A stretch of DNA of 52,847 nucleotides, from the IMG/VR virus record IMGVR_UViG_3300025141_000135, positions 1-52,847 of that record; one strand, given 5' to 3'. The notes below the pieces were generated by a model. The model saw only the letters and a program-made list of their open reading frames with translations, searched no databases and was not told where the DNA came from. Source of the stretch: a virus. Taxonomy: Duplodnaviria; Caudoviricetes. Shown here piece by piece: positions 3,933-46,555 of the stretch; the first letter of the stretch is position 1; each line of letters starts with the position of its first letter. Made by a program: the position numbers and the translations under genes.

Positions 3933-5492
3933 TTAGTTTTCTAAAGGTACGTACTCGACAATATATCCTACTATGCTCGCAGGGGAACTAGCTGTCCACT
4001 CTGGAGCTAAAGTCTCGCACATCATATTAACAAAAGTGTTTGCCCTTCTGCTCTCTGCCCCTGGCCACTGCTTTCCAGTATTCCAGCTAACTCCAGTGTT
4101 CCAAGAATACTCAGCGCCTACATTAAAAGAATCAGTTACTGTAGCTCCCCTTCCTTGATCTATATTAACCCGCATTGTAACATCACTAGCTTCTTGGCGT
4201 TTATTAAAGATAGTCTGGATATTAAGTATATGCTTTACCTTTCCTGGAAGGCCCAGATCATTAGGAGCCATCTTTATGCGCCAAGTGTAACCAGTCCCAT
4301 CATCCGTTATAAAATCACTGCTATTCGCCTTATACAAATAACCGTTGACTCCTCCAAACCAATCAAGTTCTGTAGAGCTAAGAGTTATCTCTCTGGCATA
4401 ATTTATAGGATTAGATATCAGATCAAACCATATATCCCCTGTCTCCCAATCCCAAACCATAACTTTGTCATGCCCTGAAGTATTACCAGAACTCGACACT
4501 AAGACTCTAACCTGATGATCTTTTTCTCTAACAAACAACCTTGCGTATTGCATCCTTTCTTGGTTAAGACTAAACCATCCATTCTTAGATCCAAGATCAT
4601 CTAAGTTAACAATACGAAAATTAAGATCAGGAGTAATAACAAATAAGCCTTCCCTTGCAACACCAGCAACAAACTCAGGCCGCACTACAAGACTTTTAGA
4701 AATAGGAGTAAAGCCTCGCCTAGGCTGTCCAAGTTGGAAATCAAAGTGTCCTAGCTGATCATATACTATCTCCCCTGGATAAAGCCCGTCTTCTTTAAAT
4801 ATCAGCGCTATCCCCCAGTTATCACAAGCTGCCACAATCTTAGGACCACCGTCATAGATCTCGTATCTGTTGTCAGCCCTCCAAGTTGTTATATCAACCT
4901 CATAAGTTCTTCTATTAATATCACACCAGCGAACTCTAGTAGGATAATAAGTTCCACTCTCAGTAGTTCCCCAAGATAGCATAAGATTCTTATGAGTAAG
5001 GATTCCCTGACACTTACTCCAAGGCATACCTGTAAGATTAGTAGTATTAGAACTAGTAGACCCTGTCCAAGTACGAACTTGGTCTACAGCATTATTCATA
5101 ATCAATTTATCTTTAAGAAACACAAACTCAAAGATATCATCGTTGCCGCCAGTAAAATCGCTGCCAGTTATATCAGTTCTGGATACTGCTCCTCCAGGAT
5201 CTGAGTAAGCCTTACCAGGAGTAGTAACTACTTGCCTAGTAGTACCATCAGCGAAAGTTCCTTGCCACAAACCTGTAGGCATCTCTCCACCAGGAAGTAT
5301 AGTCGTACTATACTTATTATACCCAAACCGACTCTTTGCTACACCCTCTTCTGATATATTAACATTGGTAAGAACTTCGCAGTTCTCAGGACTCAAGTTA
5401 GGGTTAGGATACCGCCACCTTGATTTTTGCCCTTTAATAAGGAATATACCAGACGTTACTGCTTCTGGTGCAACTCTAAATACTTCAGTCAT
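3933..5492 (-). CDS. putative tail nozzle/stabilisation protein (P22 gp10 / T7 tubular B-like)
   Basis: 519 aa, beta-propeller-like and W-rich, with an N-terminal 'LTNVNISEEGVAKSRFG' segment typical of this class; lies between adaptor and fibre. Confidence 0.65.
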   Translation of the reverse strand: MTEVFRVAPEAVTSGIFLIKGQKSRWRYPNPNLSPENCEVLTNVNISEEGVAKSRFGYNKYSTTILPGGEMPTGLWQGTFADGTTRQVVTTPGKAYSDPGGAVSRTDITGSDFTGGNDDIFEFVFLKDKLIMNNAVDQVRTWTGSTSSNTTNLTGMPWSKCQGILTHKNLMLSWGTTESGTYYPTRVRWCDINRRTYEVDITTWRADNRYEIYDGGPKIVAACDNWGIALIFKEDGLYPGEIVYDQLGHFDFQLGQPRRGFTPISKSLVVRPEFVAGVAREGLFVITPDLNFRIVNLDDLGSKNGWFSLNQERMQYARLFVREKDHQVRVLVSSSGNTSGHDKVMVWDWETGDIWFDLISNPINYAREITLSSTELDWFGGVNGYLYKANSSDFITDDGTGYTWRIKMAPNDLGLPGKVKHILNIQTIFNKRQEASDVTMRVNIDQGRGATVTDSFNVGAEYSWNTGVSWNTGKQWPGAESRRANTFVNMMCETLAPEWTASSPASIVGYIVEYVPLEN

Positions 5493-6490
5493 TAGCTAGC
5501 CAATCCTACGTCTACGCCCTGGATATAAGGAGCCAAAGGCCTATTTCTCATCTGGACTCTATTCTGCACATTGCCAAAGACATATAAGGACGCTGGCTGA
5601 GAATTATTATCCCCAGTGAACTCAAGCATCCTAGCCTCAAAAGTCGCTCGATGCCTGTCAGCCACTCCTGCTTTTCCAAGAGTAGGCAGCAGATCCGCTG
5701 TAACTCCCCAAATTAAAAGATCATGAAAGTCCTGATTAAACTCAGGCCAATCAGTATCATTCACAAGAGGAGGCTTACGCATCTCACAGCGAATAGTGTA
5801 AGTAATTGCGGCAGCTGGAATAGGATCAAACTCTATCCACTGATAGTCTGGAGAGTCCCACCATACAGGGATAACAGCAATAGTATTAGCGTCATCATCC
5901 TTTACTGTTACATTACCAGCAAAAGTAGATCCTGTAGCAGGAACTTTAGTAACTCTTTCTACTCCTAGTTCCGAGTCGTAACTATTAGAGGTATTAACAG
6001 AAGTAGTCCCATTCATTTGAACCTCTTCTGTTACCAAAACACCGCTAGTGTTAAAACCTGTTACTCTGACTTTAAATTTCTCTCCTGCATCATCGCCGCT
6101 ATCACTAGTAAGCGCCAGAGTTCCATCACTATTAGGATATTTCTGAACCCCTCTAACGCCAAAAGGATAAGCGCTCGCTGGCGTAGAGCTATCTGTAGAT
6201 CCTGGATTTCTCTTATCAAAGTCCCTGGCCGTGCTCATAAATACAAAGCGCGGAGTAGTGGGATCTTCTATATTAAGAACTTTTCGTACATAAAGCGGAA
6301 GTCCGTACTTACTAGTTGAAGCAACTGAAGTAAGAGAAAACTCCCTGTGCTCATGAGGCACCTTGCCACTATCAAGAACCCTGCGGTAAGCAAAGTTTAC
6401 TTGATCCTTAACAAGAGCCTCAAATGCCCCTCCTTGTGCCTGCCCAGAATAAGCGAGAATATCAGTAATGATTTCCCGAAAGGTGGACAT
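5492..6490 (-). CDS. putative head-tail adaptor protein
   Basis: N-terminal MSTFREIITDI...VNFAY and C-terminal PEFNQDFHDLLIWG pattern of podophage adaptors; position fits. Confidence 0.6.
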   Translation of the reverse strand: MSTFREIITDILAYSGQAQGGAFEALVKDQVNFAYRRVLDSGKVPHEHREFSLTSVASTSKYGLPLYVRKVLNIEDPTTPRFVFMSTARDFDKRNPGSTDSSTPASAYPFGVRGVQKYPNSDGTLALTSDSGDDAGEKFKVRVTGFNTSGVLVTEEVQMNGTTSVNTSNSYDSELGVERVTKVPATGSTFAGNVTVKDDDANTIAVIPVWWDSPDYQWIEFDPIPAAAITYTIRCEMRKPPLVNDTDWPEFNQDFHDLLIWGVTADLLPTLGKAGVADRHRATFEARMLEFTGDNNSQPASLYVFGNVQNRVQMRNRPLAPYIQGVDVGLAS

Positions 6491-6491
6491 T

Positions 6492-7148
6492 CTACTTCTC
6501 CTTACTGGCCCCTTTAGCCGAGTTGATTACTTGTTCCATAGAAGGAGATCCGTCATCCCCAGCATTCTTCTTAAAGAACTCCATCATCTGCCCAAAGAGC
6601 TCTGCTTGTTGCTCTGTTCCAGCCTGATACATATCAGAAAACGCAGAGTACATATCGGCCTGGCTTGAGGCTCTCTTTTGATCTTCGCTACGGGCCAAGT
6701 TCGCTCTGGCTTCAGGACCGTTAGTTATGAAAGCTTCCTTTACGCGAAAGTTCCATTGCTGAAACACAGGAACATTCTCGCCTGTTTGGTCTGCATAAGC
6801 ATCTACTTCAGCCTCATTCATGGGAGGGCGGCCTGGAAGAATACCCATAAGCCCGTCCATAGTCCCAACAAGAGTTGCATATATTCCATCATCTATTTGC
6901 AGTCCTCGAGGCTCTCCTTCTGTGCCGACTAAAAGCCTTTCCCTCCGATTACCTCCACCTACGTCAGAAGTAACCTGAAAGACCCACTCACCTTCCGGCT
7001 GAAAATCCGCCACCAGGTTATTAGTACTGACATACTTAGTCATCACTACTTCGCCCTTTTGTTCAGGCGTCAGTTGAAGAGGAACACCCTTTTCATAATC
7101 CTTAGTCTCAACTTCAACTTCCTTATTGATATCTAGTAAAACTGGCAT
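6492..7148 (-). CDS. hypothetical protein (218 aa)
   Basis: Long ORF within the late operon, with RBS. Confidence 0.75.
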   Translation of the reverse strand: MPVLLDINKEVEVETKDYEKGVPLQLTPEQKGEVVMTKYVSTNNLVADFQPEGEWVFQVTSDVGGGNRRERLLVGTEGEPRGLQIDDGIYATLVGTMDGLMGILPGRPPMNEAEVDAYADQTGENVPVFQQWNFRVKEAFITNGPEARANLARSEDQKRASSQADMYSAFSDMYQAGTEQQAELFGQMMEFFKKNAGDDGSPSMEQVINSAKGASKEK

Positions 7149-7171
7149 AGCCCTGTTCTCCCTTTAGAGTT

Positions 7172-7828
7172 TTATATACTAAAACCTGCAATGTTTACTT
7201 GACAATCAGAAGTACTTGCTGATATAACAGCGTTAACAGCGTTTCCTGGAGTGCATACCCACATACCACTTTGGGACATCTGGGAAGGACTAGTGTCCTG
7301 TTTATTACTGGAATAACCTATAGAAAGATCTTGGGCAGCTCCGGAGTCATTGCCTGTAGCAGTTGTAGAGGCATAAACAACTCCTAAAGTAAAGAACAGA
7401 GGAACAGGAAAACTCCTACCTACAACCCCATTTGCGGTATTAGGAATTACGTAGTTGGGAACCGTTGTTCCTAAGGTTACGTCTCCAGTAGTGGCAGCAT
7501 CAAAAAGCTGTAAAAAGGCATCAGCCGCTGTAACGTTGTGCATATCTATAGAGTTTATAAGAGTATCACCAGCCCTAAGAAGTATCTTTGTTGCATCTGC
7601 ATCATCATTAAATGATCTAGAAGATGAAGCGCCTCCTCCAAAAGACCACTCTGCTATAGTGCTAGCGCCATCTCTCAGCTGAAGAGTGGCTTCTGTGTCT
7701 GAGTGTCCAGACACATGAGTTATAATATGACTAACTCCTGTGGCTGCAGCATGGGTTGCTACTGCGCCAGCACCTGTTCCAGCTTGGGTCTCAGACCAAG
7801 CTTTATTTAATTCAAACAACGAGGCCAT
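7172..7828 (-). CDS. putative virion structural (decoration-like) protein
   Basis: A/T/S/G-rich, beta-strand pattern, two similar sub-domains. Confidence 0.55.
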   Translation of the reverse strand: MASLFELNKAWSETQAGTGAGAVATHAAATGVSHIITHVSGHSDTEATLQLRDGASTIAEWSFGGGASSSRSFNDDADATKILLRAGDTLINSIDMHNVTAADAFLQLFDAATTGDVTLGTTVPNYVIPNTANGVVGRSFPVPLFFTLGVVYASTTATGNDSGAAQDLSIGYSSNKQDTSPSQMSQSGMWVCTPGNAVNAVISASTSDCQVNIAGFSI

Positions 7829-7830
7829 AT

Positions 7831-8754
7831 CTACACTCCCACTATGTTTAACATCTCGTTAATTCTATGCTCATAAGTATGAGCGCTTCTTACCTTCTCA
7901 TGCCCTGCTTTTGCTATCTTCTCTCGCTCCATAGGATTATCTAAAGCCCACTGAATCTTATCTACCATTTCCTCCTCCCCCTCGTAACCGAGGAAATGTT
8001 CACCTTCTGAAAAGCCCAGATCATCCCAGCCAACTACATCTCTATTAGTAACAAGACAATTACCATAACTAAGAACCTCAAAGAATCTCATATTAAGGTC
8101 ATCTCTAATAGAGATATTAAAGCCAACTCTGGCCCTAGCATATCTCAAAGCAGCTTGATCAAAGAATACATTATAAGCAAACCAACTGTTAGGAAAGTTC
8201 TTAAATATTACATCTAAATAATCTATTCTATTGTTTGATCCTTCTATCTGATTATTACTAGTAGGTAGATGACCAACAAAAGCTACATCATGGAGCTTCT
8301 GAAGTCCATAGGATCCGAAAAATTCTTTAGGTATATCAGCTCTATTATTTTGAAACTCTGCATAGCTAGGATCTACAGGAGGATAACAAGCTAATGGAAG
8401 CCAGTGAACATTCTGTATTCCATCTAACTTCATCTTTGCAACATCAGACTTCTGACATAAGAAAACATGATCAAAGTGCATAGCCCACTTTAACCTAGTT
8501 TCATATCCAAGATGAGTATCCACTAGCCAGCAAGCATTAGGACTAGGAAGATCAGGCATATCAATCTCATCTCTTCCATCATCTATATAAAGCCAAAAGT
8601 CGTGCTTACTAAAATCAGGCTGTACATACCAAGGCCTGTTATAGCGGTCCATACCTGTTTCTTTATACCCCATTCTATATAAAGTATCTGTTACTCTTCT
8701 AGCTGTGCCATTATTTCTAACTTCAGCGTTATAGAGAAGTCCTGGACTTTTCAT
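7831..8754 (-). CDS. glycosyltransferase, CgeB/Glyco_trans_1_2-like (GT-B)
   Basis: DVAFVG...YARARVGFNISIRDDLNMRFFEVLSYG...REKIAKAGHEKVRSAHTYEHRINEML signature. Confidence 0.88.
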   Translation of the reverse strand: MKSPGLLYNAEVRNNGTARRVTDTLYRMGYKETGMDRYNRPWYVQPDFSKHDFWLYIDDGRDEIDMPDLPSPNACWLVDTHLGYETRLKWAMHFDHVFLCQKSDVAKMKLDGIQNVHWLPLACYPPVDPSYAEFQNNRADIPKEFFGSYGLQKLHDVAFVGHLPTSNNQIEGSNNRIDYLDVIFKNFPNSWFAYNVFFDQAALRYARARVGFNISIRDDLNMRFFEVLSYGNCLVTNRDVVGWDDLGFSEGEHFLGYEGEEEMVDKIQWALDNPMEREKIAKAGHEKVRSAHTYEHRINEMLNIVGV

Positions 8755-9998
8755 GCCAAAACCTCCGATACTTTATGACAAACTAACCTAATATTATTAA
8801 GAGTTTCACTTTCTATAGAATCTATATCAAAACCACTAACTTTTACTAGCCGCTCTAAACTATCTTTATTAAAAGCATGAAGATGTGTATAGTCTAATAT
8901 TATAGTATTAGATGTTTCATGGTTAGGAATAGTTAAAAATAACTTTCCTTTGGGAACTAACAATCTATTCCACTCAATCAAAGCAGCAAAAGGGTCTATT
9001 AAATGCTCTAATATATGAGCTGCTACTATATATTCTTGACTCTCATCATCAAGAGGAACACTTGTAGCGTCTGCCTTTATGTCAGTTAATGCCTCTCCTA
9101 ATCTTTCACCTCCCTCACCTAACTCTCCAGCATCTCTTATATCTACTCCTATAGGCCCTTCTAACTTTCTCCCTCCACAACCTATATTAAGACCAGAAGC
9201 CCCATTATAAGGTTTAAGAAGCTCCTTATACCAATCTTCTTCTGTAAGAAGAGGTTTATCCAGATCCCATTCTTTAGGATATTTCCAATGTGCCAAGATA
9301 CATTCTTGCCAAGCTCTCACACCATGCTTAGAAATAAGAGCATTATTAGTAACTTCTTGACTCCAATTAGAATCCCAATCATCTCCATGAACCCTTAATC
9401 CAGTCTGTTGCCCATGATGATGAAGATATGCTCTTCTATCTATTCTTATACTATAACCAGCCTTTATTAAACGAATACTAAGATCTAAATCATCACCTCC
9501 AGGTAACTCAGCATCAAGGCCTCCAATTTCCTTAAATATATCTGTTCTAATAACCATACAAAAGCCTATCAAAAAACTACTATCACAGACTAAAGGAACA
9601 TCAGTACGTTGAATACTTTGATTACCTGCAACAAAGTTACTTCCTGGCCCAACAGCTACCACATTATCTTTTAAGTGCGAAATAAGCTTTGTCCAAAAAT
9701 CCCACTGTGCAGGAATAAAAATAACATCATCATTTAGCAAACAATAGTAAGGAGTCTCAACTGTTTCAAGAGCTAAATTATGTGCCTTCATCCATCCTAA
9801 ATTTTCTTCAGGCTCTATAACTTTTACATACTCTTTAGCTGAGTCAGGCAAAGACTTAGCCACTTCACTTTTTCCTCCATTATCAATTACAATAACTTCA
9901 AAAGGATACTTAGTACTAAGAAAAAGTGACTCTATACATATCTTAAGCATATCAAGATTATTCCAAGTTGGTATAACTATAGTAAGAAGGTTCTTCAT
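8751..9998 (-). CDS. GT2-family glycosyltransferase fused to class I SAM methyltransferase
   Basis: N-terminal TIVIPTWN, VIDNG, LLNDDV, DDLDLSIRL; C-terminal LNIGCG, HILEHL, EWNRLLVPKGKLFLTIPN. Confidence 0.9.
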   Translation of the reverse strand: MKNLLTIVIPTWNNLDMLKICIESLFLSTKYPFEVIVIDNGGKSEVAKSLPDSAKEYVKVIEPEENLGWMKAHNLALETVETPYYCLLNDDVIFIPAQWDFWTKLISHLKDNVVAVGPGSNFVAGNQSIQRTDVPLVCDSSFLIGFCMVIRTDIFKEIGGLDAELPGGDDLDLSIRLIKAGYSIRIDRRAYLHHHGQQTGLRVHGDDWDSNWSQEVTNNALISKHGVRAWQECILAHWKYPKEWDLDKPLLTEEDWYKELLKPYNGASGLNIGCGGRKLEGPIGVDIRDAGELGEGGERLGEALTDIKADATSVPLDDESQEYIVAAHILEHLIDPFAALIEWNRLLVPKGKLFLTIPNHETSNTIILDYTHLHAFNKDSLERLVKVSGFDIDSIESETLNNIRLVCHKVSEVLA

Positions 9999-10876
9999 AC
10001 AGCAACCCCCTTTTCATTAGTCACTACAACTTGTCCATTCCTCATATCTTTTAGCGTATCTCCAAATTCCTTAACATAGTCATCATGATTATGCTGTCTA
10101 TTAGCCCAGTACGCGTCTTCATTACACCACCTAGGTGCATGGTGTAGATGTTCAGTCTTAACTCCAGTATCCATCCATCTCTCTATACTAAACTCTTTGC
10201 ACCTATAACTAAAGAAATAATCTTCTCCACATCCAGTACTGGCAAACCATGGCTTAGGAATTTCTTTAAATATATTCATATTATAAAGACATACAGCTGC
10301 TCCTAATGCAAGCTCCCCTCCTATACTAGAACTTCCAATTAACTGATCTCTAGGATAGTCTAGTAATATCTCATTCTTTTCAACAACCTTAGCATTATTC
10401 GTAATATCCCACTTTTCTGTTAACCGAAAAATAACAGGAAAAATAGGATCTCTAGCACTAAAGGCTAATGCACTTACTACGGGCTTTTGATGCCTCCATA
10501 GGCGAAGAAAAGCATCTTTTTCAAACCTCATATCATCATCCCACCAAAAGAGATAATCAGCATCTATCCCTATAGCTACATCTACTATTCTCTCTCTTGC
10601 CACCCCAACTAACGAAGTACGACTGTAATTTACTATATAGATCTCTAATTTTTCTATATCCTGCCACTCTTCTATTGTAGGATCAGCCAAGCCTTTATCA
10701 TACCCAGTTTCTTCTAAACTAGGAAGAAAATCTAAGTTTTCAATTTTAGGCATCATCTCGTGTACCCATAAACTTCTCTCACGAAGCGCACCAAAGTACA
10801 TCATCATATCAAAATAAAGTGGAAAAGTATTATCATCAGGCCCTGTATACCAAGGCATACCTAACACTAATTTCAT
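9995..10876 (-). CDS. GT-A fold glycosyltransferase
   Basis: ARERIVD...ADYLFWWDDDM (DxD motif), KPWF, GEDYFFSYRC, DTGVKTEH. Confidence 0.8.
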   Translation of the reverse strand: MKLVLGMPWYTGPDDNTFPLYFDMMMYFGALRERSLWVHEMMPKIENLDFLPSLEETGYDKGLADPTIEEWQDIEKLEIYIVNYSRTSLVGVARERIVDVAIGIDADYLFWWDDDMRFEKDAFLRLWRHQKPVVSALAFSARDPIFPVIFRLTEKWDITNNAKVVEKNEILLDYPRDQLIGSSSIGGELALGAAVCLYNMNIFKEIPKPWFASTGCGEDYFFSYRCKEFSIERWMDTGVKTEHLHHAPRWCNEDAYWANRQHNHDDYVKEFGDTLKDMRNGQVVVTNEKGVAV

Positions 10877-11121
10877 TATTTGTCCCTTCTCTCCATTAAG
10901 TCTTTAAGCCGCTCACTTAAAGTTCTATACCTAATAAGCCCTGTTCTCATCTTAAAAAATTCCCACATAGTGCCAGTTTCTACAACCTTAAATTGATGTC
11001 CTATATGATGACGCTTAATATTATTATCTGAACTTAACAGCCACATAATTCGATTACAGGAACATCTAACTAGTTTATCCTTAGTATCTCTTCCATCATG
11101 GGGTTTAAGCCATCCAAACAT
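10876..11121 (-). CDS. hypothetical protein (81 aa)
   Basis: ORF coupled to the next gene (TAATG overlap). Confidence 0.65.
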   Translation of the reverse strand: MFGWLKPHDGRDTKDKLVRCSCNRIMWLLSSDNNIKRHHIGHQFKVVETGTMWEFFKMRTGLIRYRTLSERLKDLMERRDK

Positions 11122-11139
11122 TTCCAGCCCCTTTTAATA

Positions 11140-11186
11140 AATGCAGGAGAGGGTCTTAACCAAAGGAGGCAGTGACCCTCCCCCAC
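11140..11186 (-). terminator. putative hairpin/partial terminator after the capsid genes
   Basis: GGGGAGGGTC...GACCCTCTCC stem followed by an AT-rich run on the minus strand. Confidence 0.45.
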
Positions 11187-11188
11187 AG

Positions 11189-11211
11189 CTCCGTAACAAT
11201 ATGTTACAGAG
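11189..11211. promoter_or_regulatory. 23-bp palindrome copy 2 (CTCCGTAACAATATGTTACAGAG)
   Basis: Intergenic; one core mismatch. Confidence 0.8.
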
Positions 11212-11213
11212 TT

Positions 11214-11708
11214 TTACATAGCCCTAATAAATACATGATCAGCATAAGCCTGACCAGCAGTAGCAATATTAGCACTCAAAAGAGATCCATTACCAGAAGT
11301 TGCTCCACCTCCAATAGTATCCAGAGCAACAATAGGACCATTGAAATCGGCACCAACACTATTCAATCCAAGAGTTGTTAGGTCATAAGTCATTCCATAA
11401 CCAGGACGGATTGTAACAGCTGCAGCAAGAGGAGCAATTAAAGCACTCTCATGGTACCCATACACCTGAGCAATTCCGACATCGTTATTAGCGACATCCT
11501 CATAAGCCAGGCCAATAATATTCCCGCCTCCAAGACCAGCATAACCAAAGGTTGCAGCTTTTGTTGCAGCCTCATTAGTACTTATGCTAGCGGTATTACC
11601 GAGAATTTTAACAACCGGATAATGAGCTGTAATAGTTAAACCATCACTGTTAGTGAAGTTCACCCAAACACGCTCAGTATCCGAACGATTTACAGTCTGC
11701 ATAAACAT
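11214..11708 (-). CDS. putative capsid decoration/cement protein
   Basis: Follows the major capsid gene; IGLAYEDVANNDVGIAQVYG pattern typical of cement-like proteins. Confidence 0.6.
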   Translation of the reverse strand: MFMQTVNRSDTERVWVNFTNSDGLTITAHYPVVKILGNTASISTNEAATKAATFGYAGLGGGNIIGLAYEDVANNDVGIAQVYGYHESALIAPLAAAVTIRPGYGMTYDLTTLGLNSVGADFNGPIVALDTIGGGATSGNGSLLSANIATAGQAYADHVFIRAM

Positions 11709-11723
11709 GAGTATTTTTTCCTC

Positions 11724-12008
11724 CTAAACAAAATCTATTGCAAAACGAAGAGTAGCTGCAGCACCAGTGTCTATAGCTACACTTCCGTTTGTTGCAGTAG
11801 TATCTGCAATTTGATTAATACGAGCTTGAACAGTCGTACCACCAGAAGGAAGATCGCAAGTGAACTGAGCATTCATTATACGGCTTCCAGTACCTAAGAC
11901 TGCAAAAGTCCTTAAAGTAGTGTCAGCCTCTAAAGTCCCAGTTACAACATTACGATTGCCTCTCCTAGTCACAGGACTGGTATCGTAGGTAATATCTCCC
12001 GCTGCCAT
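11724..12008 (-). CDS. small virion structural protein
   Basis: Directly after the major capsid gene; T/A/G-rich with a beta-strand pattern. Confidence 0.55.
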   Translation of the reverse strand: MAAGDITYDTSPVTRRGNRNVVTGTLEADTTLRTFAVLGTGSRIMNAQFTCDLPSGGTTVQARINQIADTTATNGSVAIDTGAAATLRFAIDFV

Positions 12009-12023
12009 TTCTCAGCTCCTTTT

Positions 12024-13007
12024 CTAGGTAATCCCCTGAAGGACGCCGTGGGCACTGCGAAGATTAGTACCCAGATTACCCTGATACAAGATCGGAGCAA
12101 TAAAGGCATCCTGGTTCACCGGGTTCTGCAAGCCACCATCAGCCATAGCGAAATCAGCGTCACGATGGACAAAACCGAAGATATGCTTCGAGTTAAGGAC
12201 ATACAGATAACCCGAGTCAACCTTCGACTCCCAGTTAATGCTAGCGCCACGGAAAGTCGGGCGGCTAGACAGATCACTCGTACCACCGCCAGTATAGCGA
12301 ATAGCAGGAACAACCAAGGATTCCAGGGTCTCAGCAACAGACTGAGTGGTAAAGATACCATCAGGCTCGCCCTCTACACCGGCAACTTCCGTGCAATCGT
12401 TATAGATCGTACGCAAGTTCGGAAGCAAGTTGACAGCGCCATTACCAACAGATAGAACAGCGTTATTCCGCCAAGCACTATTATTAGCGGAGTTAATATC
12501 CCCGTAAGTGCCAGTGGCAGGAGTCCCGTCAACCATAGCCTTAAGGCCCGTAATCTGCTTCGAGCCGTTGGAAGTGCCACCGCTGTAAGCATCCGAAGCC
12601 AAGTTATCCGCCAACGTGGACTCAGCCTGAAAGATTTTGTCTTTCGTCAAGTCACGAATACGACTTTCGCCCTGGTTCGAACGTTTGTCAAGACCAGAAA
12701 TCACGACACTAGTCGCTGCCTGTTTCCAGTTGAAAAAGGCGTTCGTGATTCCTTCGTACCCGGTAGGATCAAGAGCCTCAAGCCCTGAATAGCGCTTGAA
12801 GTTCCCACTACCTTCATACATAACCGGGACTTTAATACGCTCACCACCGGTGAGTCGTTTGATACGGTTGCCTTCCCTGATCCACGACCAGAAAGGGCTA
12901 CGCTTATGTACCTGATCTCGAAGCATCCCCGAGTCCAGGTAATTCATAATTGTCGAGGAAAGTAATGGTCCCCAGACAATCGTAGGTGCGCCATCTCCGA
13001 CAGCCAT
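12024..13007 (-). CDS. major capsid protein (HK97 fold)
   Basis: 327 aa after the scaffold; GGERIKVPVMY, FFNWKQAATSV, ITGLKAMVD, YGDINSANNSAWRN and terminal HGVLQGIT are typical major-capsid motifs. Confidence 0.88.
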   Translation of the reverse strand: MAVGDGAPTIVWGPLLSSTIMNYLDSGMLRDQVHKRSPFWSWIREGNRIKRLTGGERIKVPVMYEGSGNFKRYSGLEALDPTGYEGITNAFFNWKQAATSVVISGLDKRSNQGESRIRDLTKDKIFQAESTLADNLASDAYSGGTSNGSKQITGLKAMVDGTPATGTYGDINSANNSAWRNNAVLSVGNGAVNLLPNLRTIYNDCTEVAGVEGEPDGIFTTQSVAETLESLVVPAIRYTGGGTSDLSSRPTFRGASINWESKVDSGYLYVLNSKHIFGFVHRDADFAMADGGLQNPVNQDAFIAPILYQGNLGTNLRSAHGVLQGIT

Positions 13008-13026
13008 TTTAAATTACCTCTTAAGA

Positions 13027-13896
13027 TTAAGTTAACTCGCGGCGAGCTAAAGCCCACGCACGATCCATAACATCATCAGGGCTAGCTTCACCAGCCCTTA
13101 TATCAACCGCAGCTCCTGGAGTAGAAGCCCCAGTCCTACGAACTACATTAGGAGAAGGTCTGCTGCTACTTCCAGTATTAACCCCATTATTCAGAGTGGT
13201 CCTGCCTCTCGCTCCACCAGCTTCAGGGAACTCCATACGGAACAAGTCCAAAGGCGTAACGCCCCTAGATGGATCTTGCAACATCTGCATACGATTGTCA
13301 AGTCTCCGCTGAATAGCTGGATTCAAGACAAAGCTTCCAGACTCATCCATAGATCCGAACTGCTCTCCATACATATCAACGCCAGCCCTTAGATCCGCAT
13401 TGACAGCAGTTTCCGCAGTTTGTTCCTGGGCTTTAGCTTCCTCCCTTTGGTCTAATTCCTGTCGAGGAATATAACCAAGGCGATCAGCCATAGCCTTAAA
13501 GACTTCCATGTTCCTCTCTGTAACACCCTCAGGAAGAGGCTCCTCCTGGGGAGGTGCTTCCGGCTGTTGAACAGCTTGTTCTCTTTGCGACATCATCTGT
13601 TCCCGCAGGCCCAGAACTTCTGTGCGAAGGTCATGCCATTCGTTGTTGTTTTGGCTCATGCGCCGCTGCATACCTCTCAGGGCTTCAGCGGCCGCAGGAT
13701 CTGAATTATCTAAACGAGCAAGAACCACATCAGTTCCCTCTCGGGAAGCCTGACCAGGGTCTTGCACCTGAGTTCCTTCCAACACTGCATCAATATCAAG
13801 ATCGTCTTCACCAAACTCTTGAGCTTGATCATCAAGGTAAGCGTTAACGCTGCCTTCTTCCATCTGTCCAGTGTCGCCCCGAACTACTTCACTCAT
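13027..13896 (-). CDS. capsid scaffolding protein
   Basis: Acidic coiled-coil protein immediately upstream of the major capsid gene. Confidence 0.7.
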   Translation of the reverse strand: MSEVVRGDTGQMEEGSVNAYLDDQAQEFGEDDLDIDAVLEGTQVQDPGQASREGTDVVLARLDNSDPAAAEALRGMQRRMSQNNNEWHDLRTEVLGLREQMMSQREQAVQQPEAPPQEEPLPEGVTERNMEVFKAMADRLGYIPRQELDQREEAKAQEQTAETAVNADLRAGVDMYGEQFGSMDESGSFVLNPAIQRRLDNRMQMLQDPSRGVTPLDLFRMEFPEAGGARGRTTLNNGVNTGSSSRPSPNVVRRTGASTPGAAVDIRAGEASPDDVMDRAWALARRELT

Positions 13897-13975: not shown

Positions 13976-14395
13976 CTAATCATACCCTGGAATCTCTCCA
14001 GAAAGCTCTCTGGAAACAGTACGCCCTTCCGCGTCTGAAACCTCTATAACAGCATCATCAAAGGCCTTAGGCATCTTTTTTCGCTTGCCAATCGGCGGCT
14101 GCTTCTTTATCAGGTTAGGATTCTTATCATCGAAAATCCTAGATCCTCCAACTTGGTCTCCAGCCTCAACCACTCCCAGTTGGTTCATAATAGCCTTTTT
14201 ATCACGGGCAGAATAGACATCGCTCCCAAGACCTTCGTCATAGTAAGGCTCAAACGTATCTGCAGTGAAGCGTTCGGGCACTCGGTTCATCCTCTTTCCG
14301 CACGGACATTCGACCGGATTGCCTCTGTCATCCACTTTTCTATATACGTCATCTTTCTTTCCACAATCTAAACATTCAAAACTATAAACAGGCAT
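13976..14395 (-). CDS. FmdB-family zinc-ribbon protein
   Basis: MPVYSFECLDCG...VECPCGKRMNRV. Confidence 0.85.
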   Translation of the reverse strand: MPVYSFECLDCGKKDDVYRKVDDRGNPVECPCGKRMNRVPERFTADTFEPYYDEGLGSDVYSARDKKAIMNQLGVVEAGDQVGGSRIFDDKNPNLIKKQPPIGKRKKMPKAFDDAVIEVSDAEGRTVSRELSGEIPGYD

Positions 14396-17300
14396 CAGAA
14401 ATCATTCCCTCCCAGTTGCCTTCTGCGCCACTCATTGATAACTGACACAGCCTTAGCTCTATTTTTTACTTGTTCTTCTCCTTCTCCCCAAGTCTCAGAC
14501 AAGTCTCCAAAGCCAAGACCATAACCTTCTTCATCCGCACCGAGTAGCTTACTATCCCAATCCTGATTATTCTTAATAAAATCTTGGTTAACTTTTGCAT
14601 AGGCTCTACTATCTGTAGGATAGTTAGGAGCCATATCAGTAACACCAGGAAAATCAATGAAAGTACTAACATACTGCATTAGATTATTTAAAGCTATATC
14701 ATTCCATCGAGGCATTGCAGCATCAAGGTTCTCTACTTCAGGTATTTGATCCCAAAAAGACACATACTCCCTCTGCGTAGTTGCTCCACTTGCCCAGTCT
14801 ATTTCCTGTAGAGGACCTTCCACAGGGTGTCTACCAAACTCATGTATGCCAGCATCAGTTATAGTAGGCCCTACTAAATCAACATGCTCGTCTGATGCCA
14901 TCCAATCAGACACGAGGCTAGCGTTTCTTCGAGCGTCTCGTTGGTACATGTCATCAAGGGTTGTTTGGCTCTGTGCAACTGGATCTTCACCAATGTCCCT
15001 TTGCCCTATCGATCCTTGCGCATCCAAATCAAAAAGAATCGCAGATAATTCCTGAGGAGTTACGGGCGCTCCAGTAGTATTCCCCTGAAGATAAGCATCT
15101 ATTAATCTATCCTGCTCTTCCAAAGAAAAATCTTCAAGGTAAGACCTTATCTCATCTGAAGTCATATGAGCTGAAATGCCCAAGTTGGCAGAGCTTGTCC
15201 CAGCAGAAGGATGTTCTGACAACCTCTCAGCTACTTCATTAAGCCTAAGATCTCTTATCTCTTCCTCCGTCATTTCAGATAACGGTCTACCAAGCTCCTC
15301 AGTTTCTTCTGCTTCTCTGCGTTCCGTGCTCCTCCTATCAGCGTCTGAGAAAGTGGCTTCCAGGCTATCAAAGTCCTCCTGCGTAATGCCTTCCGCGTCT
15401 GCACCAGCACGCTCTCGCTCTAGTTCGTCAGATGATATACGCCCAGCATAATACTGTCTTAGTATCTCCAGATTCTCTGGGTCTACTATCTCCCACCTAT
15501 CTTCCCAATCAGGATGAGATAGTATAGCATTACCAGCTTGCCCAGCAGTATCAAAACCAAGGACATCCTCAGCCGCTAAAGCACCCAGAACATCTATCAT
15601 AGTATAATTCTGAGGAGGCGTTCCAGAAGCTCTTTGTAGTGTCTCTTCTGGACTTTCAGCAGGTAAGCGAGTCGATGGCTCTTCTTGTCTATAATCACTC
15701 CCTGATAGTACCGCTCTAGGCCCTTCATCATTATACTTATCTACCTGCCTTCTTACACTATCAGCGAATCGCCGAAGGGCTCCACCATCTAAATTACTAA
15801 TTATTTCCCTTTGCAGTCTTATCGGATCTCTTATCTCTCTTACAATACCATCTTTAAAGTCTTCAGCTGCAGAGCCTATTAAGAAATCAAGAGCCTCTCC
15901 TACATGCCCTGGATTGTTCATACCCCCACTAACCTTCGTAAGAACATCAAAGGAGTTATCAAGAGTCAACCCAAGATGCTCTCCGATAGCAGGATAATCA
16001 ATTAAAAGTAACTCTCTTAATCTCTGCCTTTTATCGCTAAGCATCCTACCCACAGGATCATAAGGATTTTGCTTAGAAGCTATATCTTCAGCTCTTGCCT
16101 GGTCTAGCTCGTCTAAAATTCTAAGATAGTCTTCTTTGTACTCTTCAAGAAAATCGTCTCGGATTCCTGGCTCCAGATCAGGATTTAATATAGTTCTTAG
16201 GTCTAAAGCCTCTATAGGCCATTCAACATCACTAACTATATTAGGCCCTGTGCTAGTACCTTCCCCTTGTATATACTCCCCCAACAGCGATGATCTCCCC
16301 CCAACGGAAAGATTCCCTCTACCTGACGTTCCTCCACGACCGCCTGCCGCTATACTGGCGTGTGCCCATCCGCTAACAGGAAATCCTCGAGCCGCTCTTT
16401 CGAAGTCCCTATTATACCTAGTTTCTAGGTCTGGGCTAGAAGTACCTGGAATAGCAGTAATAGGAAGCTCCCCACCAGCGCTAGGCCTGGAAGGCATACG
16501 AGAAGCTACAAAGTCTACCTCTTCTTGATGTGTCCTAGTGTTACTACCAAATTCTAGGCTCCTTATAAGCCCAGACACATCGCTTTGATCTCTTCTTAGC
16601 AAAGACCTAGGAGGCTTAGGATCGCTAGTACCAGGATATGAATACTCAAAATCATCTAAAAAAGCACTAATAGCATTAAAGTTATTCCCATCATAAACTA
16701 GCGTCCCCCCAAATAAAGTAGTATTAGGGGCCTTTGAAAGAAGATCCTCTCTTATAAATTCATCTTTAAACAATCTATCAAAAAAGGCAAACTCTTGATC
16801 CCCCAGCCTTTTATACATCCTGTCTTGTCTTGGGATACCTATAGTATCAAGGGCATCATATCCCAAGTAATCCTTGTATTCCATTCTTTCAAGAGGATTA
16901 GCATCTGGATCAAGGTACCCATTCTCTATCTGCCATAAGATAGAACTCCTGTTATATTCCCAAGTCTCTTCTCTAGTAGGACTGACAGTCGTTACCCCAG
17001 GATGCTCTCCTATAGCTGCTACCATAGCAGAGTACTTCGCACTATTTTTTCTCTTATCCCTCTCCCCTTTTTGCCTAAGCCACTTATCCCTCTTTACTAC
17101 ATAACCCTGCCAGTCAGCTGGATCTTTTGGAGGCTCTCCAACAGCCTCATCAAAAGACCTATTATCTTCTTCTATATCCTCTTTAACTCTTTCTTCTCTA
17201 GTCTTTCTAATATCCTTGGTTTTTTTAAGAAGGTCTTTAATGTCGTCACTGGGACCTGTAGGTCCTTCATCTCCTTCACCGGGGCCAGGAGCTCCCCCGC

Positions 17301-23584: not shown

Positions 23585-23701
23585 TTACTTCTTCCTAGTC
23601 CCAGCCTTCTTCACCTTCTGGCCGGTCTTCTTCGCATAAGTCTTTGCAGCCTTCTGGCCAGACTTTGAATACGAGAATTTCTTTCCTCCAACTTTAGGCA
23701 T
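23585..23701 (-). CDS. 38-aa lysine-rich protein (MPKVGGKKFSYSKSG... type; not in ORF track)
   Basis: Manual translation MPKVGGKKFSYSKSGQKAAKTYAKKTGQKVKKAGTRKK; exactly fills the gap upstream of terS. Confidence 0.75.
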   Translation of the reverse strand: MPKVGGKKFSYSKSGQKAAKTYAKKTGQKVKKAGTRKK

Positions 23702-24371
23702 TTTCAGCCACCTTTCTCAAGGCCACAGCTCCGTTACTTTCTTTGGACTCTGCCTCTATATGCCAATCAGGGACTACGTCTTGTATAGCTTGAGGATAAG
23801 GACGAGTCTCGGAAAGGATTTCTTCCAGCGGATAGTCCACACCGATACTTGTAGTTGTGGCTTCTTTTATCCTTAGGACATCTCCATTCTCAACATAAGA
23901 ACTTTCTATACTGTCTATAGTACTGAAATAACCAAAACTCATAGTTCCATTTCTGTCAGCAAACTCTTCTGTATCATGTATCGCTATAATACCATCATCA
24001 GCCATAACTCTTCTAAGCGCTAAAAGTTCTTTCTCTAAAGTCCAATAGTTATGATCTGTGTCTAGTACACAAAAGTCTATAGAACATTCTTCCATCTTAG
24101 GAAGCTCTACGTAAGACACTCCATATATCCACTCAAGCTGATCATGCTCAAATACTGCTCTTTTTATATCAATGCCACCATCTGGAAGCTCTTGCGTCCA
24201 TGTAGGATATTCAGGACTAATAACTATAAGCTTATACCCCAACTCTTCAGCCAGGTATATAAGATTAATAGTATTCTCTCCTTTGTTAGCTCCCAACTCA
24301 AGCACAGTCTTAGGCTGACGCTCTTTAATAAGAGCTTTCAGATTCAAATGTTTATCAAAGTGTCTGTGCAT
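23694..24371 (-). CDS. class I SAM-dependent methyltransferase (Methyltransf_24-like)
   Basis: PKTVLELGANKG, IDFCVLDTDHNY, GIIAIHD. Confidence 0.85.
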   Translation of the reverse strand: MHRHFDKHLNLKALIKERQPKTVLELGANKGENTINLIYLAEELGYKLIVISPEYPTWTQELPDGGIDIKRAVFEHDQLEWIYGVSYVELPKMEECSIDFCVLDTDHNYWTLEKELLALRRVMADDGIIAIHDTEEFADRNGTMSFGYFSTIDSIESSYVENGDVLRIKEATTTSIGVDYPLEEILSETRPYPQAIQDVVPDWHIEAESKESNGAVALRKVAENA

Positions 24372-35649: not shown

Positions 35650-35850
35650 ATGGCTGATCTTAAAAGCGAACAGTTTGGGATACTTCAAATGGACAGTACC
35701 AAACTGCTTGAACATATAATGGCTGTTCGGACGAGACGCAGGGATCGTTCTAAACCAGCAACTCCCAAAAGAGTAGCTAAGAAGAAGAACCCTCTAGGTA
35801 AAGTCTCTGATGAACAGATACGTAAACTACTGGAGATGACTAGTGAGTGA
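35650..35850 (+). CDS. small basic hypothetical protein
   Basis: AAGGAG RBS. Confidence 0.7.
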   Translation: MADLKSEQFGILQMDSTKLLEHIMAVRTRRRDRSKPATPKRVAKKKNPLGKVSDEQIRKLLEMTSE

Positions 35851-40897: not shown

Positions 40898-41057
40898 TGA
40901 CTATAAGAAGAGAGAAAAAGCTAACCGCTATGGCATCCTGCACCTAGTCGATGACAAGGATTTTATAACCTTCATCACCGACCTAGTACAAGAGCGTCCA
41001 CATAAAGTAAAGAATGATCTAATTATAGCTGTCAATAGGACCAAAGAAAAGGCCTAG
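40887..41057 (+). CDS. 56-aa hypothetical protein (not in ORF track)
   Basis: AGGAG RBS; MQNDDYKKREK...; overlaps the endolysin 3' end convergently. Confidence 0.55.
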   Translation: MQNDDYKKREKANRYGILHLVDDKDFITFITDLVQERPHKVKNDLIIAVNRTKEKA

Positions 41058-44865: not shown

Positions 44866-44870
44866 TTTTA

Positions 44871-46508: not shown

Positions 46509-46514
46509 TTTGTT

Positions 46515-46537
46515 CTCCGTAACAATTTGTTATAGAG
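46515..46537. promoter_or_regulatory. 23-bp palindrome copy 9 (CTCCGTAACAATTTGTTATAGAG)
   Basis: Intergenic; the minus-strand GGAG is the RBS of 46508. Confidence 0.85.
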
Positions 46538-46555
46538 TTTAAGAAAATTAGTTAA

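Follow-up and report, generated by a model that had tools for sequence, protein, structure and literature searches.

A conserved glycosyltransferase and methyltransferase cassette in the head gene module of a marine short-tailed phage and its possible role in virion glycosylation

Gene organization of the locus

The DNA analyzed here (the window, 52,847 nucleotides) represents the complete 52.7-kb genome of a short-tailed marine phage that has not been cultured and has a terminal overlap of 127 bp. The late structural operon of this phage contains a cassette of four genes coding for the small protein p81, a GT-A glycosyltransferase, a GT2 glycosyltransferase fused to a methyltransferase (GT2-MTase) and a GT-B glycosyltransferase. 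The slot occupied by the cassette is bordered by the capsid and decoration genes on one side and by an SU10-type adaptor gene (SU10_adaptor, 44 bits against a Pfam cut-off of 27) on the other side. All coordinates are compiled in Table 1.

A preliminary description of this DNA had presented the three transferase genes as translationally coupled within the morphogenesis operon. This is borne out by the stop-to-start gene overlaps, which amount to 1 base between p81 and GT-A and to 4 bases both between GT-A and GT2-MTase and between GT2-MTase and GT-B; 2 bases beyond the GT-B gene follows the reading frame of p218b (218 aa). The same description had placed a Methyltransf_24-like gene just upstream of terS, and we find there a gene that matches the Pfam family with 38.3 bits.

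The intergenic region in front of the cassette can fold into a double hairpin (MFE -41.6 kcal/mol, z -5.8). At the same place a GC-rich hairpin of 12-15 bp, with differing sequences, is present in all of the folded relatives (10/10). Its function may be that of an attenuator, a stabiliser or a site of processing.

Table 1. Features of the cassette and its surroundings (positions in the window)
Feature	Position	Strand	Basis or context
SU10-type head-tail adaptor, bounding the slot downstream	5492..6490	-	PF24175
p218a, conserved, before the adaptor; possible head-completion/connector role, suggested by position only	6492..7148	-	
p218b, modular, Ser/Thr-rich and hypervariable; may be an acceptor or a surface protein	7172..7828	-	3' of cassette
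GT-B glycosyltransferase, 307 aa, Glyco_trans_1_2	7831..8754	-	Pfam PF13524
GT2-MTase, GT2 (residues 1 to ~240) fused to class I SAM methyltransferase (~270-415)	8751..9998	-	Pfam
GT-A fold glycosyltransferase, 293 aa, distantly Anp1/Mnn9-like	9995..10876	-	Motifs and predicted fold
p81, small CxC...HxxH protein, 81 aa, first cassette gene	10876..11121	-	Invariant residues
Intergenic double hairpin, boundary between capsid/decoration genes and cassette	11122..11213	-	Folding
p164, capsid decoration/cement-like, candidate acceptor	11214..11708	-	Foldseek search of the model
p94, small Ser/Thr-rich, possible decoration protein, candidate acceptor	11724..12008	-	3' of capsid gene
Major capsid protein, 327 aa, candidate acceptor	12024..13007	-	phrog_9953
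Methyltransf_24-type methyltransferase, encoded at the start of the late operon, upstream of terS	23694..24371	-	PF13578

Analysis of the cassette proteins

The GT-A protein gave no match in a Pfam scan. Its motifs WWDxDM and GCGED recur without change in all of 10 homologues, the invariant residues being D113-x-D115, G215-x-G217-E218-D219, H243 and H246. The AlphaFold model (pLDDT 66.7) is similar to GT-A enzymes only, with GlfT2, COLGALT1, LH3 and STIV A197 as top Foldseek matches. Comparison by VIA gave Z 12.4 to LH3 (rmsd 3.8, 168 aligned), Z 11.4 to STIV A197 and Z 10.5 to Mnn9. Judged from the model and the motifs, the protein has a Rossmann-like fold of the GT-A type and contains the DxD motif for metal and nucleotide sugar.

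The 66 near homologues of GT-A are all metagenomic and none of them carries a precomputed Pfam domain, whereas a GT-A profile reached 4773 representatives at E<=1e-3. In a sample of 48 distant homologues, picked by hand from 150 listed ones with long proteins favoured, 30 match Anp1 (Pfam PF03452, GT62-type), 13 of these above the cut-off of 28.8 bits, and the matches span the DxD region only. Six of 10 close homologues match Anp1 weakly (best E 0.018). Some distant homologues also carry a fused Methyltransf_24, class I methyltransferase, GT2 or GT-B domain, the fusion to Methyltransf_24 being seen in 3/48 of the hand-picked proteins. These fusions suggest that the respective parts are linked into one pathway.

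The GT2-MTase matches PF00535 with 59.1 bits (cut-off 23.3), and its C-terminal part matches PF08241 (32.2 bits, cut-off 21.2) and PF13489 (29 bits, cut-off 27). In the GT2 domain N89-D90-D91 and G167-G168-D169-D170-x-D172 are invariant among 15 homologues, and the SAM motif I, GLN(I/V)GCG, is kept in the 12 homologues having the methyltransferase domain. This domain is present in 17 and missing from 8 of the 25 contigs that could be judged; its substrate would presumably be a sugar hydroxyl.

A second methyltransferase is connected with the cassette through its relatives. In one relative (L038) a homologue of the Methyltransf_24 protein, 35% identical and also weakly matching RMNT_CmcI, is encoded within the cassette. 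Both this copy and the fusions with GT-A connect the cassette with the remote Methyltransf_24 gene, whose product is probably an accessory sugar O-methyltransferase of the cassette pathway. The extra genes found in the slot of relatives comprise, besides this homologue, an additional GT2, an epimerase/dehydratase and a cytidylyltransferase-methyltransferase.

In p81 the residues C20, C22, W27, H39 and G41 are invariant among 13 homologues and H42 is retained in at least 90% of them. Family searches with p81 returned no match, and by tblastn it is present in 24/28 contigs reaching the slot. p81 is a member of the module and, with its CxC...HxxH pattern, may be Zn-finger-like.

The GT-B protein belongs to Glyco_trans_1_2 (85.3 bits, cut-off 25), the Pfam family PF13524 of which we take CgeB to be a member; a match of the N-terminal part to DUF3880 lies below the cut-off (18.2 versus 25.2 bits). 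An alignment of 12 homologues contains 70 invariant columns. Cellular homologues with 25-35% identity were found at 41 loci of Proteobacteria, Geobacter, Melioribacter, Acidobacteriota and Actinomycetota, Bacillus being absent from these 41 loci. At 15 of them, which come from a few lineages only, a flagellin gene is located at most 8 kb away, and the homologues in these flagellin islands adjoin methyltransferases and TPR-glycosyltransferases. Polysaccharide loci (Wzx, Wzz, FkbM) make up two of the four annotated contexts and contain the two homologues of highest identity (34-35%). In the tree the phage proteins are monophyletic (99/96) and fall outside the flagellin-linked clade (99/97), grouping weakly (86/51) with the clade from polysaccharide contexts. 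The ancestry of the GT-B protein does not discriminate between a protein and a polysaccharide acceptor.

No membrane segment was detected in the cassette proteins (no 19-residue window with a Kyte-Doolittle mean >1.6). We also searched the complete genome for partner genes, covering 45 ORFs by Pfam and 49 by PHROG, with ORFs <75 aa mostly outside the scan. At this sensitivity neither a ThyS-like enzyme nor a TET-type enzyme nor a C5-methylase was found, in agreement with the earlier statement that no base-hydroxymethylase was seen; the short ORFs have little bearing on this result since they are too short for hydroxylated-base enzymes. Likewise there was no family match in the complete genome to a flippase, polymerase, Gtr-type gene, ligase or integrase/lysogeny module, GtrA, Wzx and Wzy included. 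The genome does encode a ParB-N6/N4 DNA methylase.

Capsid protein and putative virion proteins encoded next to the cassette

The capsid protein was assigned to the major head protein family (1.1e-47), and by tblastn it shows 26-30% identity to capsid genes of Mx8, Mx9 and a Bradyrhizobium phage. The genes around the cassette had been described beforehand as coding for Ser/Thr-rich putative decoration proteins, which is correct in part. As compared with a mean of 0.13, the fraction of Ser plus Thr is 0.22 in p94 and 0.23 in p218b, but just 0.15 in p164. The enrichment in these neighbours is modest, and a decoration- or cement-like fold is indicated for p164 only.

The model of p164 is of middling confidence (pLDDT 65). 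Its top Foldseek matches in the PDB are capsid decoration, cement or head-fibre-base proteins, namely of HFTV1 (5e-4), phi29 (gp8.5), T1, E217, Sf11, TW1 and Pam3. A lead from the Atlas to Phage_cement_2 is shared by Pfam for only 1 of 16 members (E 0.012). The protein was found by tblastn in 28/32 distinct contigs and has two variable low-confidence loops rich in G, S, T and A; Ser41 is invariant. p94 is variably present (14/32 distinct contigs by tblastn) and, like p218a, gave no match in family searches.

p218b consists of an N- and C-terminal core and an inserted domain of ~110 aa which is missing from short forms. In one relative (L001) it is 67% identical while the neighbouring genes are 98-100% identical, and searches returned uncharacterised viral look-alikes only. 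The adjoining p218a is found in all 22 slot-spanning contigs with identities of 27-100%.

Conservation of the cassette

Synteny in relatives had been proposed as a check: the cassette is kept in the slot at all 13 loci of capsid-seeded relatives that reach it, and all three transferases are present in each of the 22 contigs spanning the slot. Where the capsid identity drops to 36-42% the transferases are still 43-51% identical. Furthermore, the GC content of the cassette tracks that of each genome (0.36-0.56), which indicates a long residence of the cassette in each lineage. On these sequence comparisons the cassette is part of the core of the structural module rather than a recent insertion.

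Possible function of the cassette

We consider it somewhat better than an even chance that the cassette glycosylates virion proteins, late in infection and in the cytoplasm, with a short and partly O-methylated glycan. This reading is based on the position in the late operon, the coupling, the clade-wide conservation, the soluble enzymes with intact motifs, the tailoring genes, the linkage of the Methyltransf_24 gene to the cassette, the absence of a hydroxylated-base enzyme, and the mycobacteriophage and CgeB precedents described below. Against it speak the split of the cellular GT-B homologues between flagellin and polysaccharide loci, the weak grouping of the phage GT-B with the polysaccharide clade, the lack of BLAST-level similarity to mycobacteriophage genes, the modest Ser/Thr enrichment of the neighbours and the middling confidence of the p164 model. 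The preliminary description had proposed a methylated glycan on the virion. A methylated glycan as the product is well supported, whereas its location on the virion is something we infer, gene adjacency being the sole link of the enzymes to any virion protein.

Apart from the enzyme folds and motifs all steps of the following mechanism are conjectural. One transferase would start the chain at a Ser/Thr in an exposed loop of a protein on the capsid surface, with the decoration-like p164, p94, p218b and the capsid protein as candidate acceptors. The remaining two transferases would lengthen the chain with host nucleotide sugars, and the methyltransferase domain fused to GT2 together with the separate Methyltransf_24 enzyme would cap sugar hydroxyls with methyl groups. 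The modification would take place before or during head assembly on the phage's own surface protein or proteins. Relatives may change the glycan through gain or loss of the extra GT2, the epimerase/dehydratase, the cytidylyltransferase-methyltransferase and the methyltransferase domain.

Alternatively, the enzymes could act at the cytoplasmic face on a host glycan, e.g., on lipopolysaccharide, capsule or exopolysaccharide intermediates. The infected cell or its debris would then present a changed surface, one possible benefit being that progeny do not adsorb to lysed cells. This would agree with the weak grouping of the phage GT-B clade with its kin from polysaccharide loci, with the Wzx-type flippases, Wzz, Poly_export and FkbM methyltransferases adjoining the cellular kin of best identity, and with the fact that GT2 and Anp1-like GT-A enzymes are often polysaccharide builders. 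However, the complete genome is devoid of a recognizable flippase, polymerase, ligase, Gtr-type protein and integrase/lysogeny module, the enzymes lack membrane segments, and the coupling to late structural genes leaves scant time for exporting a surface glycan. Moreover, accessory surface-conversion genes would not be expected to be core-conserved in the head module of every relative, and we regard a host glycan as an unlikely target.

It is likewise improbable that the cassette serves another target during infection, such as a non-virion phage protein (scaffold or internal proteins), a small molecule or a free oligosaccharide aiding assembly. In favour of such a target, no specific acceptor is tied to the enzymes, and NCBIfam shows a weak likeness to the small-molecule transferases MftF (5.5e-15) and MftM (3.9e-6), far below the cut-offs. 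Yet every relative keeps the genes between the capsid/decoration and adaptor genes, the lineage-specific tailoring genes point to a product that is exposed and under pressure to diversify, and genes for the biosynthesis of a small-molecule aglycone were not found in the genome.

Glycosylation of the phage DNA against restriction, late and just before packaging, is very improbable: phage GT-A and GT-B enzymes are described as decorating 5hmC, 5hmU and 5hoC, some of the clusters lying near structural genes (bioRxiv 10.1101/2023.12.21.572611; PMC13326640), the DNA methylase of the genome would fit, and very weak TAGT (PF20691) matches occur (E 0.19 in 1/10 GT-A homologues, E 0.0089 in the relative L041), but these are far under the 27.5-bit cut-off, every known route needs a hydroxylated base, made either by a thymidylate-synthase homologue or by a C5-methylase plus TET-type oxygenase, all of which the complete genome lacks at Pfam/PHROG sensitivity, and sugar O-methylation with epimerase/cytidylyltransferase accessories suits glycan building better.

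Returning to the virion as target, a more far-reaching version can be offered only tentatively, and as a whole we hold it to be less likely than not. In an abundant uncultured marine clade the glycosylation machine of p81, GT-A, GT2-methyltransferase and GT-B would be an independently evolved and essential part of core morphogenesis, and every virion would bear a methylated O-glycan coat on its decoration layer, diversified by swaps of tailoring genes in the manner of O-antigens.

Comparison with known glycosylation systems

To our knowledge actinobacteriophages are the only phages whose particles have been demonstrated to be glycosylated; this was reportedly shown in 2023 by Freeman et al., who saw little evidence elsewhere. 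Cluster O mycobacteriophages are described as carrying genes for an O-methyltransferase and three glycosyltransferases among their head genes, the enzymes not being part of the virion (PMC4351075), and the mycobacteriophage enzymes are stated to modify capsid and tail-tube proteins (PMC11600133, citing Freeman et al.). In Corndog of Cluster O these are gp35 (O-methyltransferase), gp36 and gp37 (glycosyltransferases) and gp38 (GlcNAc-transferase); the marine phage likewise has three transferases and a methyltransferase in its head block. The slot differs, however, extending from portal to protease in the mycobacteriophages and from capsid to adaptor in the marine phage. The marine families (Anp1-like GT-A, GT2-methyltransferase fusion, Glyco_trans_1_2 GT-B) also differ from the mycobacteriophage enzymes, and the marine phage is short-tailed and has the Zn-finger-like p81 in addition, whereas the mycobacteriophages are actinobacterial siphoviruses. 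To look for homology to the Corndog/Che8 enzymes, we compared the three marine transferases by tblastn with 50,697 phage records and obtained 5 (GT-A), 4 (GT2-MTase) and 1 (GT-B) records, none of them a mycobacteriophage. The precedent is therefore one of analogy and not of family membership at the BLAST level. By this analogy the marine cassette would follow the same logic as mycobacteriophage virion glycosylation with non-homologous enzymes, as a conserved part of the head-module core.

The flagellin islands of the Geobacter/Melioribacter type with TPR-GT9 and GT41 proteins hold kin of the phage GT-B, but as N-terminal domains of ~675-aa proteins, fused to GT2 and TPR in the Melioribacter example, and the phage GT-B forms a separate clade. 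The chlorovirus PBCV-1 protein A064R combines two rhamnosyltransferase domains with a methyltransferase domain, is cytoplasmic and acts on the major capsid protein. The marine phage resembles PBCV-1 in encoding a transferase fused to a methyltransferase, but PBCV-1 is a giant virus of eukaryotes and its glycans are N-linked. A further comparison is offered by Bacillus subtilis CgeB, a soluble GT-B of ~310 aa proposed to O-glycosylate exposed Thr of a lattice-forming spore-surface protein, with further transferases proposed to lengthen the chain in the CgeB/CgeA spore crust (PMC13577073). The phage GT-B is likewise soluble and of similar size, but a CgeA-like acceptor was not found in the phage.

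Two other kinds of system were considered and found not to fit. Serotype-converting glycosylation (gtrABC, O-antigen, temperate phages) involves membrane components and a lysogeny module, neither of which was found here by family matches or hydropathy. DNA hypermodification clusters (TET or ThyS with a glycosyltransferase; Pyle et al.), mostly known from metavirome contigs, share with our phage viral GT-A/GT-B enzymes that are related to cellular glycan enzymes, but no partner enzyme for hydroxylated pyrimidines was found among the scanned ORFs. About 65% of the glycosyltransferase-containing contigs are reported to be without such partners and are considered less likely to act on DNA (bioRxiv 10.1101/2023.12.21.572611).

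If the glycan is indeed located on the virion, this would change the picture of marine virus surface chemistry, aggregation, decay and recognition. A coat throughout the marine clade would extend virion glycosylation beyond actinobacteriophages and affect stickiness, decay, grazing or host recognition at sea. With its four to five genes the cassette would then also offer a compact means of glycosylating proteins and methylating sugars in the cytoplasm, and the lineage-specific accessory genes would amount to a natural experiment in viral glycan diversification. A search for cultured relatives of the clade found none. Near-identical sequence occurs in public marine metagenome runs, 12 of which contain half or more of the sampled words.

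Organization of the genome and of the late operon

Bases 1–127 of the window are identical to bases 52721–52847. This exact 127-base terminal overlap shows that the phage genome is contained in the window in full, with a size of about 52.7 kb, and that it is either terminally redundant (direct repeat) or circularly permuted. A minus-strand ORF with an open 5′ end crosses the genome junction. The minus strand is occupied from 24371 down to 796 by a single long late operon whose genes are listed in the table together with the replication genes on the plus strand.

Features of the phage genome, the late operon being given in the order of its genes
Feature	Position	Strand	Remarks
Methyltransf_24 gene	23694–24371	minus	first gene of the late operon, upstream of terS
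terS, terL		minus
703-aa portal-sized ORF, then 268-aa ORF		minus	after terL
1216-aa ORF	14395–18045	minus	between portal-side genes and scaffold; no family match
Zn-ribbon ORF, then scaffold-like ORF		minus	between 1216-aa ORF and capsid gene
Major capsid protein	12024–13007	minus	phrog_9953, 1.1e-47
p94	11724–12008	minus
p164	11214–11708	minus	probable decoration protein
p164–p81 gap	11122–11213		two hairpins
p81	10876–11121	minus	cassette
GT-A	9995–10876	minus	cassette
GT2-MTase	8751–9998	minus	cassette
GT-B	7831–8754	minus	cassette
p218b	7172–7828	minus
p218a	6492–7148	minus
SU10-type adaptor	5492–6490	minus	PF24175, 44 bits
519-aa virion protein, then fibre		minus	downstream of adaptor; fibre with S74 chaperone domain
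PD-(D/E)XK nuclease, Sak4-like ATPase, primase		plus	replication genes
ParB-N6/N4 DNA methylase	35843–37180	plus	replication genes
UDG-PolA fusion	37193–39586	plus	replication genes
M15 peptidase endolysin	41032–41454
1135-, 545- and 1817-aa ORFs	41458–52009	minus	adjoining the endolysin
ORF across genome junction	52477–52845	minus	5′ end open

Among the replication genes the family A DNA polymerase carries a fused N-terminal domain of the uracil-DNA-glycosylase superfamily and lies near a fusion of a ParB N-terminal domain with an N6/N4 DNA methylase. For the three very large ORFs adjoining the endolysin no Pfam or PHROG family was found, the sole weak match (Toprim_Crpt, E 0.008, below the cut-off) being located in the 1817-aa ORF; judged from their position alone, a role inside the head or in ejection is probable. 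The 1216-aa ORF is 87–92% identical in L001, the contig of a relative, compared with 99–100% for its neighbours, and in the relatives L002–L005 it is recognisable over the first 207–210 residues only. It appears to be a fast-evolving or swapped giant of the head module.

No tRNA genes were found in the window and no integrase family was matched. A nucleotide search with positions 7000–13100 against 50,697 GenBank phage records gave no match, and the best identities of the capsid protein are 26–30%, with Mx8, Mx9 and one Bradyrhizobium phage as its nearest matches. To judge from these searches the phage appears to be without a cultured relative. Near-identical DNA occurs in public runs labelled as marine metagenomes, with at least half of the sampled words being present in 12 runs.

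Enzymes of the cassette

The preliminary description had placed three glycosyltransferases, one of them fused to a methyltransferase, as coupled genes within the morphogenesis operon and a further Methyltransf_24 gene upstream of terS, and all of this proved to be correct. The four ORFs of the cassette overlap stop to start, by 1 base for p81 and GT-A and by 4 bases each for GT-A/GT2-MTase and GT2-MTase/GT-B, and p218b starts 2 bases past GT-B. With Pfam, the GT2 domain was assigned to PF00535 (59.1 bits), the class I methyltransferase fused to it to PF08241 (32.2 bits) and PF13489 (29 bits), and GT-B to PF13524 (85.3 bits), to which presumably also CgeB belongs.

The 293-aa GT-A protein, having no Pfam, NCBIfam or PDB sequence match, had to be identified by its motifs and a fold model. 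Neither the protein sequence by itself nor a profile gave a significant match in the PDB; it was placed by structure comparison only. The motifs WWDxDM and GCGED are invariant in an alignment of 10 homologues, and the AlphaFold model built on this alignment (pLDDT 66.7) matches GT-A enzymes only. Foldseek returned GlfT2 (8e-6), COLGALT1, LH3 and STIV A197, and in VIA the Z scores were 12.4 to LH3, 11.4 to A197 (19% identity) and 10.5 to Mnn9. No longer proteins with a p81-like domain were found, a search result that is weak evidence. The GT-A profile detected no relative in the contigs of 185,579 species genomes and thus neither a prophage copy nor a clue to the host.

Conservation of the cassette in related phages

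A capsid-seeded search of IMG/VR yielded 17 loci with 62–99% capsid identity, 4 of which end before the slot between the capsid/decoration genes and the adaptor; p81, GT-A and GT2 are found at the same place in all 13 loci that reach it. More distant phages were added by a second search which was seeded with the GT-A profile and is hence biased to carriers. Both searches together gave 32 distinct contigs, of which 28 reach the slot and 22 span the region from GT-A to the adaptor. GT-A and GT2 are present in 28 of 28 and all three transferases in 22 of 22 of these contigs, so the synteny holds in every relative reaching the slot. Even in the most distant members the transferases are 43–51% identical compared with 36–42% for the capsid protein, and the enzymes are therefore at least as conserved as the capsid. 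By this comparison the cassette belongs to the core of the head module.

The GC content of the window's cassette is 0.35–0.38 versus 0.44, which suggested a recent horizontal insertion (a "moron"). We rejected this possibility because no relative lacks the cassette and because the GC content of the cassette tracks that of the genomes: the relatives range from 0.40 to 0.58, the cassette being 1–7 points lower, which argues that the cassette is ancient in each lineage.

The more distant freshwater phage MW202711.1 has a single GT-A homologue (209 aa, 27% identity, 7905–8534) in the same slot, the gene order being capsid, small ORF, glycosyltransferase and tail tubular protein A. A transferase may thus occupy the slot between capsid and adaptor in further podophage lineages; MW202489.1, a capsid relative, is without any annotated transferase.

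Evidence for a methylated glycan

The slot carries accessory genes in several relatives, namely an extra GT2 in L039 and L040, a cytidylyltransferase-like protein fused to a methyltransferase in L039, an NAD-dependent epimerase/dehydratase (1e-39) in L037, and what appear to be pieces of an epimerase and of a GT2 in L041. The slot of L038 contains a gene which is homologous (35% identity) to the Methyltransf_24 gene of the window and which also shows a weak match to the rhamnosyl O-methyltransferase family RMNT_CmcI. Of the 25 judgeable contigs, 17 have the methyltransferase domain fused to GT2 and 8 lack it, and its SAM motif is conserved where the domain is present.

Among 1.84 billion proteins the GT-A profile found 4773 representatives at E ≤ 1e-3 and 14 at E ≤ 1e-30. 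We inspected 48 of 150 listed homologues for fusions, hand-picked with a bias to long proteins. In this sample 30 match the Pfam family Anp1 (GT62-type mannosyltransferases), 13 of them above the cut-off, and fusions to Methyltransf_24 (three proteins), a class I methyltransferase (four), a separate GT2 domain (at least nine) and a GT-B including Glyco_trans_1_2 (one) were observed. Each part of the system, Methyltransf_24 included, is thus fused somewhere to the GT-A family, and this supports the view that the cassette and the distant Methyltransf_24 gene would form one shared pathway making a methylated glycan.

Flanking proteins and the boundary hairpin

Of the 32 distinct contigs, 28 have p164. 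The model of this protein (pLDDT 65) matches almost only decoration, cement or head-fibre-base proteins of capsids, that is HFTV1 (5e-4), phi29 gp8.5, T1, E217, Sf11, TW1, Pam3 and weakly lambda gpD. A language model gave a lead to Phage_cement_2 with which Pfam barely agrees (1 of 16 homologues, E 0.012), and the p164 profile produced chance-level matches only against the PDB. On the basis of the fold we regard p164 as probably decorating the capsid. p94 and p218b belong to no recognisable family and are rich in Ser/Thr (fractions of 0.22 and 0.23, mean 0.13). p218b is hypervariable, its identity in L001 being only 67% compared with 98–100% for the genes beside it. It is also modular: a short core, which occurs alone (108-aa forms) in other relatives, is interrupted by a central domain of some 110 residues. 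The inserted domain stands alone as a 117-aa ORF in L016.

The gap of about 93 bases between p164 and p81 is predicted to form two strong hairpins (–41.6 kcal/mol, z –5.8). A GC-rich hairpin of 12–15 bp was found at the same place in all ten relatives folded (L003, L005, L008, L013, L015, L016, L022, L030, L036 and L041), the sequences being different and mostly without a U-run after the hairpin. This structure may serve as an attenuator or stabiliser which sets the enzymes apart from the capsid and decoration genes, whose products are needed in abundance; it might also be an RNase site. In four metatranscriptome runs from two studies short contigs with 100% identity cover the scaffold, capsid, p94 and p164 genes (11221–13896), one further contig lies at 7715–7865, and 7866–11220 is devoid of contigs. 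As these are assembled contigs only, with a depth of 2–6 and possible DNA carry-over, the contig-free cassette proves nothing about expression or termination at the hairpin.

Possible acceptors of the glycan

We lean, with somewhat better than even confidence, towards a core system, expressed late, by which surface proteins of the virion would receive a methylated glycan that varies between lineages. The virion is favoured as the target by the position and the coupling of the genes, by their conservation as core genes, by the lytic late context and by precedent. A methylated glycan on the virion had been proposed before, and this proposal is partly supported: the methylated glycan is supported by the fusions, and the virion as its acceptor is argued from context and precedent.

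The closest published system is the glycosylation of mycobacteriophage virions (PMC11600133, citing Freeman et al. 2023), which follows the same logic but has no detectable homology and differs in enzyme families, slot and virus type. By analogy the window's cassette would be an independently arisen variant of phage virion glycosylation. An apt functional analogy for GT-B is CgeB, after which this enzyme had originally been named and for which O-glycosylation of Thr112 in CgeA, a lattice-forming protein of the spore crust, has been proposed (PMC13577073). No description of the clade or the cassette was found in the literature searched, including passages of the aquatic-phage papers PMC12619734, PMC12801897 and PMC9599517.

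Alternatively the cassette could modify a host glycan, which we regard as unlikely given that there is no membrane-like segment in any of the cassette proteins and that no match to a family of flippases, polymerases, Gtr-type proteins or integrases was obtained. The ancestry of GT-B bears on this possibility. A genome scan with GT-B gave 41 cellular loci with 25–35% identity, 15 of which have a flagellin gene within the flank, and one 3-kb "MAG" contig at 50% nested among the phages. Two of the four contexts annotated, those in Geobacter and Melioribacter, represent flagellin islands that encode TPR-GT9 and GT41 proteins, the other two being polysaccharide loci in which Wzx, Wzz, Poly_export and FkbM genes occur. 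In a tree of 53 sequences the flagellin-linked homologues form a clade of their own (99/97) and the phage enzymes another (99/96), which groups weakly (86/51) with homologues from polysaccharide contexts. Because of the separate clades and the weak grouping the ancestry of GT-B leaves the choice between protein and polysaccharide as the acceptor undecided and, if anything, leans slightly against a protein.

That the cassette acts on yet another target is likewise improbable and ranks next. Least probable, and in our opinion very unlikely, is a glycosylation of the phage DNA, since according to bioRxiv 10.1101/2023.12.21.572611 and PMC13326640 all described routes to DNA-linked sugars need a thymidylate-synthase homologue, a TET-type oxygenase or a C5-methylase, and in keeping with what had been noted from the sequence, no such enzyme was found with Pfam and PHROG in the complete genome.

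The 3.2-kb contig at 50% identity (L044), which is filed under a Bacteroidales MAG, lies beside L030 within the phage clade. In all probability a contig of phage origin was assigned to the bacterial MAG during binning, and it hence gives no clue to the host. In Geobacter argillaceus (L076) and a Melioribacter MAG (L048) the GT-B homologues form the N-terminal domains of larger proteins (about 675 aa), the one in Melioribacter being fused to GT2 and TPR parts. They are neighboured by giant TPR-GT9 proteins and flagellin, in Geobacter also by GT41 proteins and a methyltransferase, and the two loci look like uncharacterised flagellin glycosylation islands.
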